In this document: in pieces, positions 1,422-42,227 of the stretch | Layout of the letters: each line of letters starts with the position of its first letter | How positions within the stretch are numbered: the first letter of the stretch is position 1 | Virus record (IMG/VR): IMGVR_UViG_2690315831_000003 | Source of the DNA: a virus | Taxonomy: Duplodnaviria; Heunggongvirae; Uroviricota; Caudoviricetes | Direction: 5' to 3' (one strand) | Length of the DNA stretch: 51,350 nt | Program-made: the position numbers and the translations under genes | Notes under the pieces: generated by a model | Seen by the model: only the letters and a program-made list of their open reading frames with translations | Databases searched by the model: none | What the model was told of the DNA's origin: nothing

Positions 1422-3893
1422 TTAAAAATCAGCCTGACTCGGGATCAGTTTTTGCCAGATGGCTGAAACGTATTTTGCCTGGTAACGCGCATCGTGCAGC
1501 GCGTTATGGCGTTCACCTTCGAATGGAATAGTCGTTCTTGCGTCGAAATCCATCACCAGTCCCAGAGCAACCATCGTTCTTACATCGCGATCATTGGTGT
1601 AACGCCACGGGCAGGGGATCCCCTGCCGTTCATATGAACGGCGTAAAATCACGTTGTCGAAAGTTGCACCGTTACCCCAGACCTGAACAAAAAATTCACC
1701 GGAGTTTTCGTCGATAAATTCCCGGAATTGCAGCAGTGCATCATCCAACGGGATTTCATCGGTCAGAATGGCGGATTGTGCTTCGCGTGACTGTTTCAGC
1801 CACCACTTAATGGTGTCCCGATCGATGACCCCGCCTGCGGTTTCCAGATCGATAGTTTTGCTGAATTCTGGCCCCATCTCTCCGGTTGCCGGATCAAAAA
1901 ACTTACCGGCTATAGCGTTTATTGGCGCATCAGGATTTTTTCCCATTGTTTCAAGGTCAATCATCAGATGGTGCCACAACCTGCTGGTGGATGTGATTTC
2001 ATGATGACCGTTCACTTTAATTAAGGGATTTGCTGTTTCGCCAGTTTTATTATCGCTGGCGTGATACCGATCGCTGACAGTGTTCTCCTTGTGCAGATGT
2101 TCAGTGCCTTCCATTTCCTCCGGATCATTTTCCTGAGCTTCAGCCTGATTCTCTTCATCGAATGTTTCCTGGTAGGTTGCGTTCCCCATCACCGCACCAC
2201 AGTCAGGACAGTTGCCGCCACCGGTCTGACCGCATGCGGTGCAAACTTTTTCCGGTTCTTGTTGCACTTCTGGTTCAGGCAGTTTCGTTTCTGGCTCGTT
2301 TTGTAACGCATTTGGGCTGTTTTGTTCCGCTTTCTGGTCGTTTTGTTCCGATTCGGGCTGGTTCTGGTTCACAGAATCGCGGGTTTCAATCCCCTTAACC
2401 CATTTCGGATCATTCGGGTCGCTAATCCCTTCAACAAACTCACCACGTGATGCACCAAGCAATTTATCGGCGTCAGGCTGGCTGATATTGGCTGCCTGCA
2501 TAATTTTGTTTACTTCGTCAGCGGTAACTTTTACCGGCTCTGGTTGTTCTGAATGTTCAGATATATCTGTATTTTGCGGTAAGCCCATGTATGTGCCGTT
2601 TTTGCGGGCAAAATATTCTTCTTTCGTGATTTCAGTAGCCCCGGCAGCCAGCGCCTTGTCCAGACCAGAAAGTTTGTTTGCGCGACCGTATTTTTCCCCG
2701 TCCTTATCGGTAAAGACGAAATAAAAAGGCCCTTCACGCTCTACAGATGGTTCAGCTTCCACCAGGATTTCATTTTTTTGAGAATTGGATTCCGCCGTCT
2801 CCACTGGATCAGTTTGTTCTGCTGACAGGAGGAGAGCATCAGCAGGGCTCTGGTCTGTTTCTTCATGTTCAAATACGCCCTTTGTAGTCAGGTATTCAGT
2901 GATGTATTTGTTCAGCGCCACGGGATCTTTATGAATGTCGATCGGACGTTCACGAACAAGGCCGAAAATAGTCTGACGGCTGTATAGAAGTGCATCAGGT
3001 TGTTTGCGCATTGATGCAGAGATACGCTTCCAGTCTTCGCGATCCTTGTCGATAACTTCATTTTTTGCCCAGCGATGGATGCTGCCGTCAATGTTTCCGG
3101 CATCAATATCACCAGGCCAGAGAGCGTAAGCCAGCTCTTCATCCAGTGTTTTCCATGTCTGCCTGTATTCGCGACGAATGGCTGTAGTGACAGGGTTGAT
3201 TTTTGCTGCTGAGTTTTCGGTGAGGTGCTGGTTAACTCTGGTGCGTGCGAGATCAACAACAGACGTATATTTTCCGGTTTCCTTGCGTTTACCTTCGCGA
3301 CGTTTTTTCCAGATGCGCATCTCTGCCTGAATTTCTGGCCATTTGGCACCAGGCTTACATTTATGCTTAACCCACCCGATGGCATGCAGTTTAATCTCCG
3401 GATACATGGCGTTAACTTCTGGCATTTTCATCAACGCTTCAACGATATGTCCGTCGAATGTTGCCATGTCTTCCTGCAACAATTCCTGTGCGCTAATCAC
3501 CATATCAACGGTGATGTTTTCACATGTGTCGAACTTAACCATGACAGCGTTCTGTACTTCAGGGGACAGCTTGTCAAAAGTGACGTTCATCGGATCTGAT
3601 TCAGTCTCAACCGGGACAAAGGAAGCAGACGCCTCATCCCAGCGGTTTTCCAGCATATATTCAGCATCCCAGGAGTCGAGGGCTGGGCGGGGTGTACCGG
3701 GTTTATCCTCACAGACAAGAAATTTATAAGCGCAGTCCTGAGCAGCCGGATAATGTTCAAGGAATTGCCAGTGAAATTTTGCGCGGGCGCGACGTTCATC
3801 ACCGGCTTCAATGGCAGTGGCCACAGCAACAGCGCCCTCGTTTTTTATTGCCTGTTCGTCAGGAATGGCGGCGCAAATAAATATTTTACTCAT
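1422..3893 (-). CDS. Large exonuclease (the type often annotated exodeoxyribonuclease VIII-like) with C-terminal DnaQ/DEDDh 3'-5' exonuclease domain
   Basis: 823 aa; C-terminal motifs IDLETMG and HNALHDARYQAK fit DEDDh Exo I and Exo III; Cys-rich CTACGQTGGGNCPDCGA segment mid-protein; RBS GAGG before ATG at 3893. Confidence 0.7.
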   Translation of the reverse strand: MSKIFICAAIPDEQAIKNEGAVAVATAIEAGDERRARAKFHWQFLEHYPAAQDCAYKFLVCEDKPGTPRPALDSWDAEYMLENRWDEASASFVPVETESDPMNVTFDKLSPEVQNAVMVKFDTCENITVDMVISAQELLQEDMATFDGHIVEALMKMPEVNAMYPEIKLHAIGWVKHKCKPGAKWPEIQAEMRIWKKRREGKRKETGKYTSVVDLARTRVNQHLTENSAAKINPVTTAIRREYRQTWKTLDEELAYALWPGDIDAGNIDGSIHRWAKNEVIDKDREDWKRISASMRKQPDALLYSRQTIFGLVRERPIDIHKDPVALNKYITEYLTTKGVFEHEETDQSPADALLLSAEQTDPVETAESNSQKNEILVEAEPSVEREGPFYFVFTDKDGEKYGRANKLSGLDKALAAGATEITKEEYFARKNGTYMGLPQNTDISEHSEQPEPVKVTADEVNKIMQAANISQPDADKLLGASRGEFVEGISDPNDPKWVKGIETRDSVNQNQPESEQNDQKAEQNSPNALQNEPETKLPEPEVQQEPEKVCTACGQTGGGNCPDCGAVMGNATYQETFDEENQAEAQENDPEEMEGTEHLHKENTVSDRYHASDNKTGETANPLIKVNGHHEITSTSRLWHHLMIDLETMGKNPDAPINAIAGKFFDPATGEMGPEFSKTIDLETAGGVIDRDTIKWWLKQSREAQSAILTDEIPLDDALLQFREFIDENSGEFFVQVWGNGATFDNVILRRSYERQGIPCPWRYTNDRDVRTMVALGLVMDFDARTTIPFEGERHNALHDARYQAKYVSAIWQKLIPSQADF

Positions 3894-17311: not shown

Positions 17312-17740
17312 ATGTATTGCCGTGCTGTACCGGTTCTTGTTTTGATATTAGCCAGTCTGACAACTGGCTGCACAAAAGATGTATCGACAAATAATTATGA
17401 TGCTTCTCTGTATCACTCAGATAAATTAATAAAGTCGCAAAATTTGAGCTCATCGGAACGTACCCCTGATGCCAGTGAAGAAATCCGGCAGTATGCCATT
17501 CAGGTCAGGAAAGCCATAGAAGAACAGTTAAAGGATGCGAGTAAGTATTCAGGAAAAGAGTGTTCACTGAGAATGTATATGGCCCCGAATGGTCTTCTGC
17601 TACAGGTTAAAAGAGAAAGCGGTGATCCCGATTTATGTCGTGAAGCGATGAATGCAGTAAAGAATGCTGATATACCATCACCACCGTCTTCAGGAGTATA
17701 TAAAGCATTTAGAAATGGCGTGCTGGATTTTAAACTCTGA
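17312..17740 (+). CDS. Lipoprotein with TolA C-terminal (domain III)-like domain
   Basis: Signal peptide plus lipobox LTTGC; C-terminal SKYSGKECSLRMYMAPNGLLLQVKRESGDPDLCREAMNAVKNADIPSPPSSGVYKAFRNGVLDFKL parallels recalled E. coli TolA III; AT-rich context. Confidence 0.7.
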   Translation: MYCRAVPVLVLILASLTTGCTKDVSTNNYDASLYHSDKLIKSQNLSSSERTPDASEEIRQYAIQVRKAIEEQLKDASKYSGKECSLRMYMAPNGLLLQVKRESGDPDLCREAMNAVKNADIPSPPSSGVYKAFRNGVLDFKL

Positions 17741-17877: not shown

Positions 17878-18053
17878 ATGGTGAATCCCCCTGTGCGGAG
17901 GGGCGACTGGTGAACGGTATGATCTCTTTGATGATCGTAAGCGAGAATACGCGGGTTTGGTGTCACCGGGCTGAACTCACCGGGAGGCACCCGGCACCAT
18001 GCTCATGGTGATACAGAAATGCGGCTTCAGCCCCTCTCCGGAGGGGCTTTCTT
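17878..18053 (+). ncRNA. Putative sRNA, repeat unit A
   Basis: Promoter TTGCCT (17840-17845) / TAAAAA (17864-17869); terminator GCCCCTCTCCGGAGGGGC + T-run at 18030-18052; ORFs across the unit not conserved. Confidence 0.4.
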
Positions 18054-18435: not shown

Positions 18436-19161
18436 ATGGATGTTGCCTGCTCTGTGGTCCTGATTCGCTATCCGATAGATATTTTTCTTGAAAAAGAAAA
18501 AGTTTCACTCGATGCCGGAAGTGTTATGCTTGTTGCCAGAAATATAAGAGGGCTTTTCTGTGCTTATGCCGACAGAGTGAAAATGGCAGATATAAGTAAC
18601 AGCGTCGTCAATCAGTATCTGGAAAGGGAGTGTGAACTGACGGAGTATACACCGACAAAAATGCCTCTTTATTTGATGTCTGATATTTACAATACGGAAC
18701 TGGCGGAGGCTTTAATAACCCGGCATAGTGAATCCAGTGATACTTTGAAGGATTTCTCTGTTATAACCGCATTTTCATGTATCTCCTTATTTGCAACAGA
18801 CAGACGTCTGCCATTATTTTTGTCCGGTGCTGTAAATAATATCAGCTGTAAAGTAAGGGCTATAATTCAGACCGACATATCGGCAGGCTGGATGCTTGGT
18901 GTGATTGCATTACAATTGCATATGAGCGAAAGCTTGTTGAAGCGAAAACTTAAGGATGAAGGTTATAGCTTTAGTCGGTTGTTGCTGGAGGAGCGAATGC
19001 GTGTTGCTGTTAATCTTGTATGTTTCCAGCGAGAGTGTGGACAAGCGATAGCGGAAAAATGTGGTTACTCAAGTAAGTCCTACTTCATTTCTGTATTTCA
19101 CCAGTATTATGGTGCACCACCTGAGAGCTATGCATATTTGCAGAAAGCAGACGTTATCTGA
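18436..19161 (+). CDS. AraC/XylS-family transcriptional regulator (cargo)
   Basis: 241 aa; C-terminal dual-HTH AraC signature region; AT-rich locus. Confidence 0.7.
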   Translation: MDVACSVVLIRYPIDIFLEKEKVSLDAGSVMLVARNIRGLFCAYADRVKMADISNSVVNQYLERECELTEYTPTKMPLYLMSDIYNTELAEALITRHSESSDTLKDFSVITAFSCISLFATDRRLPLFLSGAVNNISCKVRAIIQTDISAGWMLGVIALQLHMSESLLKRKLKDEGYSFSRLLLEERMRVAVNLVCFQRECGQAIAEKCGYSSKSYFISVFHQYYGAPPESYAYLQKADVI

Positions 19162-20111: not shown

Positions 20112-20282
20112 GTGAATCCCCCTGTGCGGAGGGGCGACTGGTGTGATTTGCATCTTTTCTGTTGTAGGCAATGCAAACGCGGGTTCAGGGACACCAGACT
20201 GGACTCACCGGGAGGCACCCGGCACCATGTTCATGATGATACAGATACGCAGTGTCAGCCCCTCTCCTGAGGGGCTTTTTTA
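20112..20282 (+). ncRNA. Putative sRNA, repeat unit C
   Basis: Near-identical to unit A over the first ~35 nt and the 3' hairpins; terminator 20258-20282. Confidence 0.4.
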
Positions 20283-25621: not shown

Positions 25622-25753
25622 ATGTCAGACAAACTCATAATGCTGGCGAAGATCCTCTGTGTAATCGTCGGCATTTCATTTTCACTAATGCTGGTTGCTC
25701 TTTTTCTTTCCATGGGCTGGATGATGTTGTCTTCGTCGGGGCTGCTGGAGTGA
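25622..25753 (+). CDS. Small membrane protein between R and Rz
   Basis: 43 aa; GGAGG before ATG; single TM helix. Confidence 0.45.
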
Positions 25754-26223
25754 GCATAAACCGAATGCTTTCCGCGTTTACCGTTATTCTGCTGGTGGTC
25801 TGTGGTGCGCTTAGTCTGGGGCTGAATCATTACCGCGATAACGCCATCACCTACAAAGCGCAGCGCGATAAAAAAGCCAGAGAGCTGGAGCAGGCAAACG
25901 CAACCATTACTGATATGCAGGTGCGCCAGCGCGATGTTGCTGCGCTCGATGCAAAATACTCGAGGGAATTAGCCGATGCGAGAGCTGAAAATGAAACTCT
26001 GCGTGCTGATGTTGCCGCTGGTCGTAAGCGCCTGCGGATCAACGCCACCTGTCCAGGCTCCGTGCGTGAAGCCCCCACCACCTCCGGCGTGGGCAATGAT
26101 GCCTCCGTCGAACTCTCTCCAGTTGCTGGACGAAACGTTCTCGGTATCAGAGACGGAATCATCAGCGATCAGGCCGCATTGAGAACGCTTCAGGAATATA
26201 TCCGCACTCAGTGCCTGAATTAA
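25750..26223 (+). CDS. Rz: Inner-membrane spanin Rz
   Basis: 157 aa; N-terminal TM then coiled coil; embedded lipoprotein ORF in the +1 frame. Confidence 0.8.
25991..26182 (+). CDS. Rz1: Outer-membrane lipoprotein spanin Rz1, embedded in Rz
   Basis: [15 protein letters not shown] lipobox followed by Pro-rich sequence, wholly inside Rz. Confidence 0.75.
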
Positions 26224-26403
26224 CAGAGCCTGCTTAATCGCTGGCTTTTTCATATCTGAATTTCACCGCGCACCGCAGCGCATGATAACCACCGAACCTG
26301 CCCCTTTGGAATGAGCCTTTGAGGATACCAGTTAGTGCTGGCGAGCCTCGGTGGGCTGGTTTCCTGTGCGGCAAAGGTTCATTTCAAAGAGCAGGTACAC
26401 GCT

Positions 26404-26949
26404 ATGAAATATTCTACCGTTGTTAACGGCATTGATTTTCGTGACATGGTTATGGTAGTGGGAGGCTCTGTCCTGACCACGAGTATTAAAGTGGCGGAAT
26501 TTTTTGGTAAGAGTCATAAGAACGTATTAAGAAAGATCAGGCAAACCATTTCTGAATGTCCTGATGATTTTGCCCGGCTCAATTTTGAGCCTACTGATTT
26601 TATTGATAAAAATGGTGATGTCCAGCCAATGTTTAACATGACGAAAGACGGTTACATGCTGGTCGTTATGGGGTTTACTGGTAAGACTGCGATGCAAATA
26701 AAGGTTACGTACATCCAGGCTTTCAACTGGATGGCAGAACTTATCATGCAGGGAAAAACACACCTGGAAGCTGAGAGAAATGCAGTCATGCTGGAATACA
26801 TGAAAGAGAAAGATGTCGCCAGTATGTCAGGTCGCTTGCTCAATCGCTGGGGCAGGGTGAAGAAGCCTCAGTTGCTGGCAAGGCTGGACAGGCTGGAGCA
26901 GCAGGGGCAGATTGCGTTACCCGGATTTGATAAAGGCATTTCAGCCTGA
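26404..26949 (+). CDS. Rha-family phage regulatory protein (antirepressor-like)
   Basis: N-terminal segment typical of Rha domain (VVNGIDFRDMV...); ATG 26404. Confidence 0.6.
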   Translation: MKYSTVVNGIDFRDMVMVVGGSVLTTSIKVAEFFGKSHKNVLRKIRQTISECPDDFARLNFEPTDFIDKNGDVQPMFNMTKDGYMLVVMGFTGKTAMQIKVTYIQAFNWMAELIMQGKTHLEAERNAVMLEYMKEKDVASMSGRLLNRWGRVKKPQLLARLDRLEQQGQIALPGFDKGISA

Positions 26950-27279
26950 CATAACTATGCGCCGTATCGTCGCCGTATTCCTGCATTAACAGAGACCGCA
27001 GCCCGACCGGGAGACTCCTCTGCGCGAGTGTGCGGGGATAATCAAAAACGATACACACCGGGGTTTACCGCGTTAACGGAGCGCGGCGTTGTCCCCTCAT
27101 GGTCGCTGGTCCGGTGCGATGGTGGAAGAAACCGGACGATGTGTTACCTCGCAAGCTCTGTTATGTCATGTGTCTGATTTGTGATTTAAGTCGGATAATT
27201 GTCGTTGCCATTAAGCAGAGGATTGATGACCGACAGGGTGGCATTGTTAGAATAAGACTTATTCTTATCTGTGCCGGGA

Positions 27280-27612
27280 ATGAAAATGAAAAGAAATCTT
27301 CCGTTAATTATTTTGTTGTCTTCTCTGGTTATGGGCTGTACGCAACATAAAACAGATATGCCCCGACAGTTGGTTAAGGCATTACCACAATATCCGGCCT
27401 ATGCAGCGGCAAATTATATAAAGGGACGGGTTGATGTGAAGTTTGATATTGGTGCTGATGGTACTGTCACCCGAATTGAGTTTATCCGTTCAGAGCCGCA
27501 CCATCTGTTTGATGAGCAGGTTGTAAAGGCGATGGCAAAATGGCGATTTGAGAAGGACAGGCCGCGTAAAGGCATGAAGAAAACGTTTATCTTTAGTCCT
27601 TCTGCACCCTGA
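27280..27612 (+). CDS. Lipoprotein with TonB C-terminal domain
   Basis: Lipobox LVMGC; PQYPAYAAANYIKGRVDVKFDIGADGTVTRIEFIRSEPHHLFDEQVVKAMAKWRFE parallels recalled E. coli TonB C-terminus; 17-bp palindrome just upstream. Confidence 0.75.
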   Translation: MKMKRNLPLIILLSSLVMGCTQHKTDMPRQLVKALPQYPAYAAANYIKGRVDVKFDIGADGTVTRIEFIRSEPHHLFDEQVVKAMAKWRFEKDRPRKGMKKTFIFSPSAP

Positions 27613-27743
27613 TTATTTCATCAGAAATTAATTATCACTCTGTTGTTATTCTGTACATCCCGGCTGGGTAAGTCTTGTTCCGCCGGGTATGAAGATGAAA
27701 TATTGTTGGAGGACAGTGGGTACCTGCTCCTGTAACCGAACGT

Positions 27744-27944
27744 TCATTTCTCGTTATTTGTCATGCTGGCCGGACGCAGATGCGTTGCATCTGTTGCCAG
27801 CCTTCTCCTGCAGGCTTCAATAACCCACGCTGAAAAGTTACCGGACCCTTTATGCTCAAGGGCGATGTTGATCTGTTCAATCATGTGATTGGGGAAACGG
27901 ATATTGCGGGTTGTGGTTCTACGGGTCCGGTTTTTCGATGACAT
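27744..27944 (-). CDS. YlcI/YnfO-like small protein
   Basis: Start MSSKNRTRRTTTRNIRFPNHMIEQINIALEHKG; 66 aa. Confidence 0.45.
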   Translation of the reverse strand: MSSKNRTRRTTTRNIRFPNHMIEQINIALEHKGSGNFSAWVIEACRRRLATDATHLRPASMTNNEK

Positions 27945-27985
27945 ATTTATTTCCTTTACTGATTGCCATATGACGGGGATTTTAC

Positions 27986-28351
27986 ATGGCTGAGCTTCGT
28001 ACACTCCAGAGCAGAATCAAAACACTGAATACCCGACGGGTGAATATTCTGAAGGGTGAACAGCGTCGTGTCAGTGGCAGTGCACGTGTTTCCCTCAAGC
28101 GTCATATCTGGCTCAGGGATGCCGGGCAGTGCTGTCTCTGTGGTCGTGTGGTTGACCTCTGTGACAGTGAACTCGATCACCGAATTGCACTTCAGTTCGG
28201 TGGTGGTAATGAGGAGACGAATCTCTGGACGCTCTGTACCGAATGCCATCGACAAAAGTCTGCTCGTGAAGCGGCGGGTGGTATGCCGGACCCGACGCTG
28301 CCGGAGGTGTCCGGAGGTAGTGACAGAGCGGACGACATCATCGGACTGTAA
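27986..28351 (+). CDS. HNH endonuclease (terminase-associated)
   Basis: Cys-rich HNH core (CCLCG...DHRIALQFGG...CTECH); immediately upstream of terminase genes. Confidence 0.8.
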   Translation: MAELRTLQSRIKTLNTRRVNILKGEQRRVSGSARVSLKRHIWLRDAGQCCLCGRVVDLCDSELDHRIALQFGGGNEETNLWTLCTECHRQKSAREAAGGMPDPTLPEVSGGSDRADDIIGL

Positions 28352-28429
28352 CCCGACCCGGGGGGGTATCATCCGGCGTAAAAAACGATCGCTTTGGACA
28401 CCGCGCCCCCTCTCACGCAGAGAAAAAAT

Positions 28430-28572
28430 TCCCGTTTCAGGGCAGTTAACATGTTAACTGGCTGTCCGGGCATTTTTTCGGTTTTTATCTTTATTATTCA
28501 GTTTGTTGCGTGGAAAAAATGTTAACAGGCTTTTTCAGCAAATGTTAACCTGGCAGCAGTTAACATTTGCGG
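28430..28572. repeat. Cluster of GTTAAC-containing repeats upstream of terS (candidate cos/terminase recognition region)
   Basis: At least five (T)GTTAAC(A) motifs within about 140 bp between HNH and terS. Confidence 0.45.
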
Positions 28573-28639
28573 CATGAGACGCCGGGAAAAATGGCTGAAC
28601 CATACCCGGCTGAGTGCGTTCTGGACCCGGGAGGAGGCT

Positions 28640-41893: not shown

Positions 41894-42227
41894 GATTAAG
41901 ACCCTTCACTGGTGTCCCCGGGAAGGGATGCAGGTGACGGAGAAACCGTCGGTGGTGACGGTGAAGTTTGGCGACGGTTATCAGCAGCGTCGTCCGGCAG
42001 GACTGAATGCGCAACTGAAGACCTTTCAGGTGGTTTTTCGGGTGACAACGGATGCTGAGCGGGAGGCACTGTCCGCGTTTCTGTCATGGCATGGCGGTTA
42101 CCGGGCTTTTTTGTGGAAGCCCCCGAAACATAACCGGACGGTCAGGGTGGTGTGCCGGGAGTGGAGTATTACGGATAACGCCCGGTACAGTGATTTCAGT
42201 TGCACGATAGAGCAGGTGGTGAACTGA
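41886..42227 (+). CDS. Minor tail protein M-like
   Basis: 113 aa, coupled to the tape-measure stop. Confidence 0.75.
   Translation: MDEIKTLHWCPREGMQVTEKPSVVTVKFGDGYQQRRPAGLNAQLKTFQVVFRVTTDAEREALSAFLSWHGGYRAFLWKPPKHNRTVRVVCREWSITDNARYSDFSCTIEQVVN

Follow-up and report, generated by a model that had tools for sequence, protein, structure and literature searches.

The question raised by this locus is what a lambdoid prophage gains from a gene for a small lipoprotein that carries the C-terminal domain of TonB. The window, meaning the whole stretch of DNA that was analysed (51,350 nucleotides), is a complete lambdoid Escherichia coli prophage that extends from an integrase gene at the left end to tail-fibre genes at the right, and a prophage of strain OkiPb01697 is about 99% identical to it over most of its length. 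The TonB-like gene lies in the slot that separates the lysis cassette from the terminase genes, and its product is identical to a RefSeq entry that is named merely 'TonB family protein'. The features of the gene and of its left flank are as follows.

25750-26223: Rz, to the left of the TonB-like gene
25976-26182: Rz1, embedded in Rz, encoding a proline-rich lipoprotein
26335-26949: Rha-family regulator, between Rz/Rz1 and the TonB-like gene
27286-27612, plus strand: TonB-like coding sequence, 327 bp, 108 amino acids, identical to WP_060612389.1, stop codon at 27610-27612
27286-27339, plus strand: lipoprotein signal peptide with lipobox LVMG-C (Cys18) and Thr at position +2, from reading of the sequence
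27361-27597, plus strand: TonB C-terminal domain, residues 26-104 (equivalent to E. coli TonB 153-231), from profiles, alignment and an AF2 model

The initial annotation had located the open reading frame correctly, and the peptide segments that it quoted are exact. Three start codons are available (GTG at 27271, ATG at 27280 and ATG at 27286), of which only the last is conserved both in the sister subfamily described below and in the 13 of 80 close alleles that read ATAAAAATG; the RefSeq start is also at 27286. Comparison with the phage 21-type sister subfamily B, which is 70% identical, gave a dN/dS of 0.12 for the gene and of 0.105 inside the TonB_C domain. Among 70 alleles of its own subfamily A, taken from viral contigs, 16 synonymous and 7 nonsynonymous variants were counted, with no premature stop. 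The TonB-like open reading frame is a real, selectively maintained gene. Its region was matched in 767 of 5426 complete E. coli genomes, with 414 of these matches covering at least 80% of the query.

Residues 1-18 form a typical arrangement of MKR, a hydrophobic core and the lipobox, with the codon of Cys18 at 27337-27339. The lipobox had been pointed out in the initial annotation, and its cysteine proved to be invariant in 24 family members from about ten genera. In enterobacteria, the residue after the lipobox cysteine directs membrane sorting (the +2 rule). This residue is Thr in the window protein and Ser, Ala or Thr in its relatives, with no Asp at this position; from its Thr, the window protein is predicted to be sorted to the outer membrane. 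The tether between Cys18 and the TonB_C domain is about 7 residues long, and the tethers of the family range from 7 to about 16 residues.

The homology to the TonB C-terminal domain, initially suggested by comparison with a sequence of E. coli TonB that agrees with PDB 1u07, was established by profile searches. Both Pfam PF03544 (TonB_C; 55.3 bits against a cut-off of 24.6; 9.3e-15) and TIGR01352 (55.3 bits against a cut-off of 27.1; 6e-15) matched above their curated cut-offs. Residues 26-104 align with E. coli TonB 153-231 without gaps, with 31 of 79 positions identical (39%). Residues of the fold core or of functional importance in TonB are retained, namely Y163, P164, F180, G186, F202, W213 and F230, so that the YP motif and the aromatic core are common to both proteins. 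Three residues linked to TonB-box recognition are changed (Q160 to L, R166 to Y and V226 to K). An AF2 model built from 18 family sequences has a mean pLDDT of 87, and of 96-98 across the domain, values that may lean on homologues seen in training; it supersedes an earlier model from 8 close sequences with a pLDDT of 68. The α1-β1-β2-α2-β3 fold of the model, which has the same order of secondary structure as the E. coli TonB C-terminal domain (residues 153-239; PDB 1u07, 2gsk and 2grx) and includes a β3 strand with alternating hydrophobic residues, superposes on the solved TonB C-terminal domains at 1.0-1.4 Å. The top Foldseek match was 1u07 (1.3 Å); TonB from the BtuB complex (2gsk_B) and from the FhuA complex (2grx_C) matched at 1.0 Å and 1.2 Å, respectively, each with a TM score of 0.92.

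The likeness to TonB is confined to this domain. Profiles of full-length TonB equivalogs (NCBIfam PRK10819) scored 49-74 bits against cut-offs of 265-448 and matched only over their last 80 or so positions. The N-terminal transmembrane anchor, through which TonB couples to ExbB/ExbD, is replaced by a cleavable lipoprotein signal peptide, and the 7 residues between Cys18 and the domain leave no room for a periplasm-spanning, proline-rich spacer. With neither of these parts, and hence no link to ExbB/ExbD or the proton-motive force, the TonB-like protein is not an energy transducer. In further contrast to TonB, the prophage protein is lipid-anchored, by prediction to the opposite (outer) membrane, and its C-terminus is 4 residues shorter. 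The protein is a lipoprotein with a TonB_C domain, and not a TonB.

To the right of the gene lie a YlcI/YnfO gene (minus strand), an HNH gene, terS and terL. The DNA at 26957-27136 is 96% identical to that found directly 3' of Rz in an Stx1 phage without the TonB-like gene, and from about 27137 rightward the homology is solely to the cassette of phage 21 and Perceval. The local GC content at the gene is 40-45%, as compared to 50-57% in its flanks. The initial reading of a cargo (moron-like) gene in a lambdoid prophage is supported. A scan found no intrinsic terminator near the gene, and a search of 26000-28600 against Rfam returned no RNA family. A small upstream open reading frame (MVEETG..., 21 residues in the window and 45 in phage 21) was rejected as a gene, since its length is not conserved and its start lies in the generic DNA that follows Rz.

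Fifteen phage records carry the TonB-like gene. Subfamily A comprises Stx1a-converting phages, JLK-2012 and Lys8385Vzw, and subfamily B comprises classical phage 21 (gene 73, 'TonB C-terminal domain protein'), Perceval, ev017 and the PhiR phages; one further copy, 40% identical, belongs to a Klebsiella phage. A scan of viral sequences gave nothing beyond near-identical E. coli copies. A wider family emerged from an exhaustive profile search and from a second search for homologues, with proteins of 105-130 residues and the same design in Raoultella, Klebsiella, Serratia, Erwinia, Pantoea, Rahnella, Sodalis, Salmonella and Pseudescherichia. The family shares the motif SxPxHLFDD..V.A..KWRFEK.KP, and the most conserved family-specific part of it (SxPxHLFDD...KWRFEK) is located on helix 2, not on strand β3. 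In every phage that has it, the gene directly follows the lysis cassette and precedes the terminase genes, a slot shared by phage 21, Perceval, the Klebsiella phage and prophages of Serratia, Rahnella and Sodalis and occupied in at least 6 phage lineages at 36-70% identity. The copies outside phages are isolated single chromosomal genes with unrelated neighbourhoods and a patchy distribution, one of which adjoins an integrase fragment and a pore-forming colicin gene. No transporter or siderophore gene adjoins a family member in any of the 23 loci examined. Such a patchy, single-gene pattern with a recurrent slot is typical of accessory competition or defence genes.

The region upstream of the gene contains four features that may relate to its control.

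27137-27285, plus strand: cassette-specific upstream region of the moron, with the predicted promoter and candidate operator, delimited by the homology breakpoint at about 27137
27226-27253, plus strand: predicted sigma-70 promoter with -35 ATGACC, a 16-nt spacer and a TG-extended -10 TAGAAT, from a consensus scan
27249-27265, no strand assigned: perfect 8-1-8 palindrome AGAATAAGACTTATTCT, candidate operator, from reading of the sequence
27251-27269, no strand assigned: Fur-box-like 19-mer, 13/19 matches, reverse complement GATAAGAATAAGTCTTATT, with its centre 26 nt before the ATG

The predicted promoter matches the consensus at 9 of 12 positions, with a weak -35 at 27226 and the upstream TG of the -10 element included in TG-n-TAGAAT at 27245-27253. 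It is the sole promoter-like site that the consensus scan found on the plus strand around the gene. The 17-bp palindrome AGAATAAG-A-CTTATTCT lies exactly where the initial annotation had placed it and, as was also proposed there, overlaps the putative promoter at its extended -10. With arms of 8 bp or more and a loop of 0-4, the window contains 24 perfect palindromes (4.1 ± 2.4 expected), 4 of them with a loop of 1 (0.58 expected); as a bare pattern, the palindrome is only modestly unusual. It has no second copy within the window. The palindrome is intact at 75 of 80 subfamily-A loci despite variable flanking bases. Subfamilies A and B have the sequence ATTGT(T/C)AGAATAAGAC in common; in subfamily B (phage 21 and Perceval), the left, -10-like arm is retained and the right arm is missing through a 13-bp indel. 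The palindrome itself is not a feature of the family.

The resemblance of this site to a Fur box had been described as loose and speculative. Taken alone it is weak: the window has 15 positions with 13/19 or better against the Fur consensus, and the 14 others, which are scattered inside genes, score as well or better; no site anywhere in the window matches the consensus with 3 or fewer mismatches. The comparison with relatives makes the resemblance stronger than could be known from the window. Upstream of the gene in 14 of 23 family loci, a Fur box of 14-17/19 is centred 16-56 nt before the start codon, and it is usually the single best match across the whole 10-16-kb locus. Examples are GGTAATGAAAATCATTATC in Serratia grimesii, GTTAATGAGAATCATTATC in a Sodalis prophage and TATAATGATAATCTTTATC in the locus L109. 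Against a background of 1.26e-4 per position, or about 1.7% per upstream region, the enrichment has a binomial probability near 3e-15 when only independent contexts are counted (about 11 of 19). Given boxes of this quality at the same position in so many loci, iron control through Fur appears to be a trait of most of the family. The window site sits at the position homologous to the Fur boxes of its relatives, which suggests that the window copy is probably under Fur control as well. Two observations count against this part: the score of the window copy is only 13/19, and the symmetry centre of the palindrome is 3 nt off the best Fur register. Subfamily B has no Fur box.

Transcription in the lysogen is documented for the closest tested homologue, the Perceval copy of the Crohn's-associated strain LF82 (LF82_160/PERCE_65), which is listed as a moron (PMC9928086, Table 1 and S1). 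In LF82 lysogens grown in LB, this copy is transcribed 8-fold over the prophage background; levels are similar in DMEM and in macrophages, while the neighbouring genes for Rz and terminase stay silent (PMC9928086). For this homologue, therefore, the case that the initial annotation gave as refuting, a gene silent in the lysogen, does not apply. In the same data, the 70% identical homologue has a log2 fpkm of 5-6.6, as compared to 2.3-4.3 for Rz and terminase. Perceval also carries the iron/manganese importer sitABCD (PMC9928086). Steady expression of the Perceval copy in iron-replete LB would agree with the loss of the Fur site in subfamily B. For the window copy itself a promoter is predicted, and the lysogen transcription data are those of the Perceval homologue.

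The C-terminal domain of TonB is the part that docks onto TonB boxes, by β-strand addition. The best explanation for the locus, a tentative one that falls a little short of an even call, is that the product serves as a competitive, dominant-negative decoy that lowers TonB-dependent killing. The moron product, a 10.5-kDa lipoprotein, would be anchored through Cys18 in the inner leaflet of the outer membrane, and the short tether would hold the complete TonB_C domain against the periplasmic face of that membrane. With no ExbB/ExbD-coupled anchor and no spacer across the periplasm, it could not transmit energy. In the same way as TonB, the domain would occupy the TonB boxes of TonB-dependent transporters and those that group B colicins or phage proteins bring in, or it would compete in some other way with scarce TonB. 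Phages of the T1/phi80 type, colicins and microcins would then kill less through TonB-dependent routes, and the price would be some loss of siderophore uptake. Transcription would start from the gene's own promoter in the lysogen and come from late-operon read-through in lytic growth. A Fur-type operator would overlap the promoter in most family members, and probably in the window copy, so that the protein would be made when iron starvation raises the number of transporters and hence vulnerability.

Two precedents speak for a dominant-negative action, which is rated the most likely. Overproduced periplasmic TonB fragments inhibit import by TonB-dependent transporters (Howard et al. 2001, as cited in PMC9841981). 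In these engineered fragments (Howard, Herrmann, Stratilo & Braun 2001, as cited there), as in the prophage protein, the periplasmic domain of TonB is uncoupled from its energy source, and they provide the mechanistic precedent for such an action; they are artificial, soluble and overexpressed, whereas the prophage protein is natural, lipid-anchored, shorter, selected and phage-carried. The other precedent is provided by Llp (T5) and Cor (T1, phi80, N15 and HK022), small phage-encoded outer-membrane lipoproteins that target a TonB-dependent transporter, FhuA, and disable it from the periplasmic side (PMC9586334). Pfam, PHROG and PADLOC searches detected no sequence relation to Cor or Llp, the only matches of the window protein being TonB_C and phrog_1267. 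Llp and Cor are specific for FhuA and jam its plug rather than its TonB box, and they are encoded beside the receptor-binding genes of FhuA-using phages, whereas the TonB-like gene follows the lysis cassette. The C-terminus of the tail-tip protein J of the prophage is lambda-like and not of the phi80/FhuA type, so self-exclusion in the manner of Cor and Llp is not indicated; no cor-like open reading frame was found after J. A positional parallel is Bor (lambda and phage 21), likewise an outer-membrane lipoprotein moron that is expressed in the lysogen and encoded between the lysis cassette and cos/terminase; it differs in being of an unrelated fold and family and in being transcribed from the opposite strand.

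Several observations count against a decoy. The changed residues at positions 160, 166 and 226 are those linked to the TonB box, the strongest family-specific conservation lies on helix 2, no PADLOC entry matched the protein, and induction by iron starvation would produce an inhibitor of uptake when uptake is needed, which looks costly. The main rival, which we regard as unlikely, is an accessory factor for iron starvation, whose role would be to help or tune TonB-dependent uptake instead of blocking it. It might, for example, occupy the TonB boxes of transporters that are idle, leaving scarce TonB to the loaded ones, or free TonB after a cycle, and phages would gain through the fitness of their lysogens in iron-poor hosts. 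The Fur boxes upstream of most family members, the many chromosomal copies outside phages and the presence of the gene together with sitABCD in Perceval fit such a helper; the patchy occurrence as a lone gene, in none of the 23 loci beside one for a transporter or siderophore, does not, and no precedent for a helper of this kind was found, while the periplasmic TonB fragments, as cited in PMC9841981, inhibit uptake. A variant of the decoy explanation with the same outcome, in itself quite improbable, is titration of the Ton machinery: pairing of the β3 edge with the C-terminal domain of TonB, or binding of the periplasmic domain of ExbD, would hold TonB unproductive at the outer membrane. The fold is essentially identical to that of TonB fragments that crystallise as dimers (1u07), which speaks for titration, but so short a tether favours a partner at the outer membrane, where the C-terminal domain of TonB is present only transiently.

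It is improbable that the TonB_C fold is simply the scaffold of an outer-membrane lipoprotein whose function is unrelated to TonB boxes, such as Bor-like serum or complement resistance, adhesion or peptidoglycan binding. The gene does lie at or beside the bor position, bor being in the neighbouring slot in phage 21, and the family-specific conserved surface is on helix 2; however, a tether of 7 residues would be too short to reach the peptidoglycan layer, nothing suggests surface exposure, and the Fur association points to iron and Ton biology. A lysis accessory protein or spanin, as the label of phrog_1267 ('Rz-like spanin'; 3e-42) and the position of a lipoprotein gene 3' of the lysis cassette would have it, is very improbable. 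An o-spanin is a short, proline-rich lipoprotein that is paired with, or embedded in, an i-spanin gene and is required for lysis. The prophage has its own complete Rz and embedded Rz1, and the TonB-like protein is a globular domain rather than a short proline-rich chain; moreover, the Rha gene intervenes in the window and bor does so in phage 21, most relatives are chromosomal and far from lysis genes, and the homologue is expressed in uninduced lysogens in which Rz is silent. These observations contradict the PHROG label. Barely credible, finally, is a decaying, functionless fragment of a captured tonB gene, even though annotations from the first O157 genomes onward have called the gene a 'partial tonB-like membrane protein' and others a 'TonB fragment', and several subfamily-B copies are frameshifted near the 3' end. 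The selection analysis contradicts this reading, with its low dN/dS and its 70 alleles free of stops, as do the acquisition of a lipoprotein signal peptide that is conserved across genera and the expression of the homologue.

The initial annotation had further paired the TonB-like protein with a TolA-III-like lipoprotein about 10 kb away, the two being seen as decoys for both envelope energy-transduction systems. The second gene is real and lies 9.5 kb upstream.

17312-17740, plus strand: separate cargo lipoprotein with a TolA C-terminal domain (Pfam TolA 5.7e-23; lipobox LTTG-C)

This protein resembles the TonB-like one in joining a lipobox to the C-terminal, partner-binding domain of an envelope energy-transduction protein. 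It belongs to another family with a separate distribution and is encoded at the stx position, downstream of Q and two tRNA genes. In strain RM10466 the two genes are 10 kb apart, whereas in strain RM9387 they reside in different prophages about 300 kb apart. The only phage record with the TolA-like gene, mEp460_ev081, is outside the 15 that have the TonB-like gene, so that none has both. The idea of a pair is weakened by this independent assortment: the genes have no fixed partnership and do not form a unit, and they are parallel solutions that happen to share a prophage.

A literature search, which included prophage TolA and the combination of Fur with a TonB-like lipoprotein among its topics, found no functional study of the TonB-like prophage gene. 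A paper on iron and orf6/orf10 of the APEC phage phiv142-3 was set aside as concerning other genes, and the mention of TonB_C in a paper on T11SS refers to ordinary TonB. As far as the searchable literature shows, neither the conserved lipoprotein family nor its association with Fur boxes has been described, and the same holds for its repeated acquisition by phages at a single slot and for its mislabelling in PHROGs. By analogy with Llp and Cor, the proposed function would be of a kind already known, that of phage lipoproteins interfering with TonB-dependent uptake. The decoy explanation can be drawn out into a fuller scenario, more speculative and possible rather than probable, in which a TonB domain tethered to the outer membrane and induced by iron starvation would cap emerging TonB boxes and confer broad tolerance to TonB-dependent phages, colicins and microcins, and would be exchanged as a single gene among Enterobacterales and captured by phages at least 6 times.

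The TonB-like lipoprotein may blunt TonB-dependent phages and colicins. Llp and Cor each disable one receptor, whereas the target of a docking domain taken from TonB would be the common energising step. Its protection could then extend to many unrelated phages, as well as to the colicins and microcins that are commonest in gut E. coli. The 767 gene-positive E. coli genomes include many Shiga-toxin producers from cattle and patients. Because the gene is common and is present in classical phage 21, it could bear on the control of Shiga-toxin-producing E. coli by colicins or phages and on the uptake of siderophore antibiotics. The association with Fur boxes offers a simple regulatory model, for which subfamily B provides a natural operator-deletion variant. 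If the protein were instead an aid to iron uptake, Ton physiology would gain a new component. In both cases, a function would be assigned to a widespread gene that is now labelled 'TonB family protein' or, wrongly, 'Rz-like spanin'.

The TonB-like cargo gene was examined with its flanking DNA and its relatives, for which the relevant features are as follows.

Features of the TonB-like gene flank and of related loci
Window 26957–27136: 180-nt non-coding block left of the TonB-like gene, compared with Stx1 phage LC645428 and phage 21
Proteins P0010, P0012, P0013, P0015, P0018, P0019, P0021, P0024 and P0030: frameshifted or truncated subfamily-B copies
L099:3346–3483 (phage 21) and L102 (Perceval): TonB-like cassette of subfamily-B phages, next to bor (opposite strand)
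L109:2208–4739 (ENA ERZ27336808 NODE_6): chromosomal TonB_C-lipoprotein family member and its neighbours

The non-coding block shares 96% identity with the DNA directly 3' of Rz in LC645428, a phage without the TonB-like gene, and about 88% with phage 21; its conservation is far above that of the adjoining cargo gene. A short ORF (MVEETG...) begins at the end of the block and encodes 21 residues in the window and 45 in phage 21.

Frameshifts or truncations affect many subfamily-B copies at approximately codons 66–95, near or just N-terminal of strand β3, and one cluster of such copies contains 130 members. These lesions could mark a mutational hot spot or have arisen through repeated decay of the gene in cryptic prophages. 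Expression of bor in the Perceval lysogen LF82 rises strongly in DMEM and in macrophages (log2 about 8–11), and the TonB-like gene is flat under the same conditions (PMC9928086). Therefore, these two neighbouring lipoprotein morons are regulated differently.

The chromosomal gene has a Fur box that scores 17/19, and directly adjoins a phage-integrase fragment, a 137-residue ORF and a gene for a 360-residue protein that is glycine-rich at its N-terminus and contains a pore-forming colicin domain (PF01024).

The window as a whole contains 24 perfect palindromes (arms of at least 8 bp, loops of 0–4), compared to about 4 expected. Several of these are listed below with further cargo.

Other palindromes and cargo
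Window 1610–1642: two adjacent palindromes of 16–18 bp, near the int/xis end
Window 17312–17740: TolA-domain lipoprotein; its C-terminal domain matches Pfam TolA at 5.7e-23
Window 18029–18048 and 20257–20276: inverted repeat AGCCCCTC...GAGGGGCT, two copies 2.2 kb apart
Window 18436–19161: AraC-type regulator (HTH_18/HTH_AraC), after the TolA-domain lipoprotein gene
Window 28443–28460: perfect palindrome CAGTTAACATGTTAACTG, about 115 nt upstream of terS
L001:35118–36701 (OkiPb01697 prophage): ompC-type porin insert; the corresponding window site, 42217–42227, has no insert

The TolA-domain lipoprotein gene occupies the site of stx in Stx phages, after Q and two tRNA genes, and is followed by the AraC-type regulator gene; no described function was found for either protein. 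The OkiPb01697 prophage is near-identical to the window, with an additional 1.6-kb insert between tail genes; its porin gene is further envelope-protein cargo in the same phage lineage.

The protein encoded at 27286–27612 matches PHROGs v4 family phrog_1267 over its full length (3e-42). This family is annotated as 'Rz-like spanin' in the lysis category, a label that the analysis indicates is wrong and that will spread into phage annotations.
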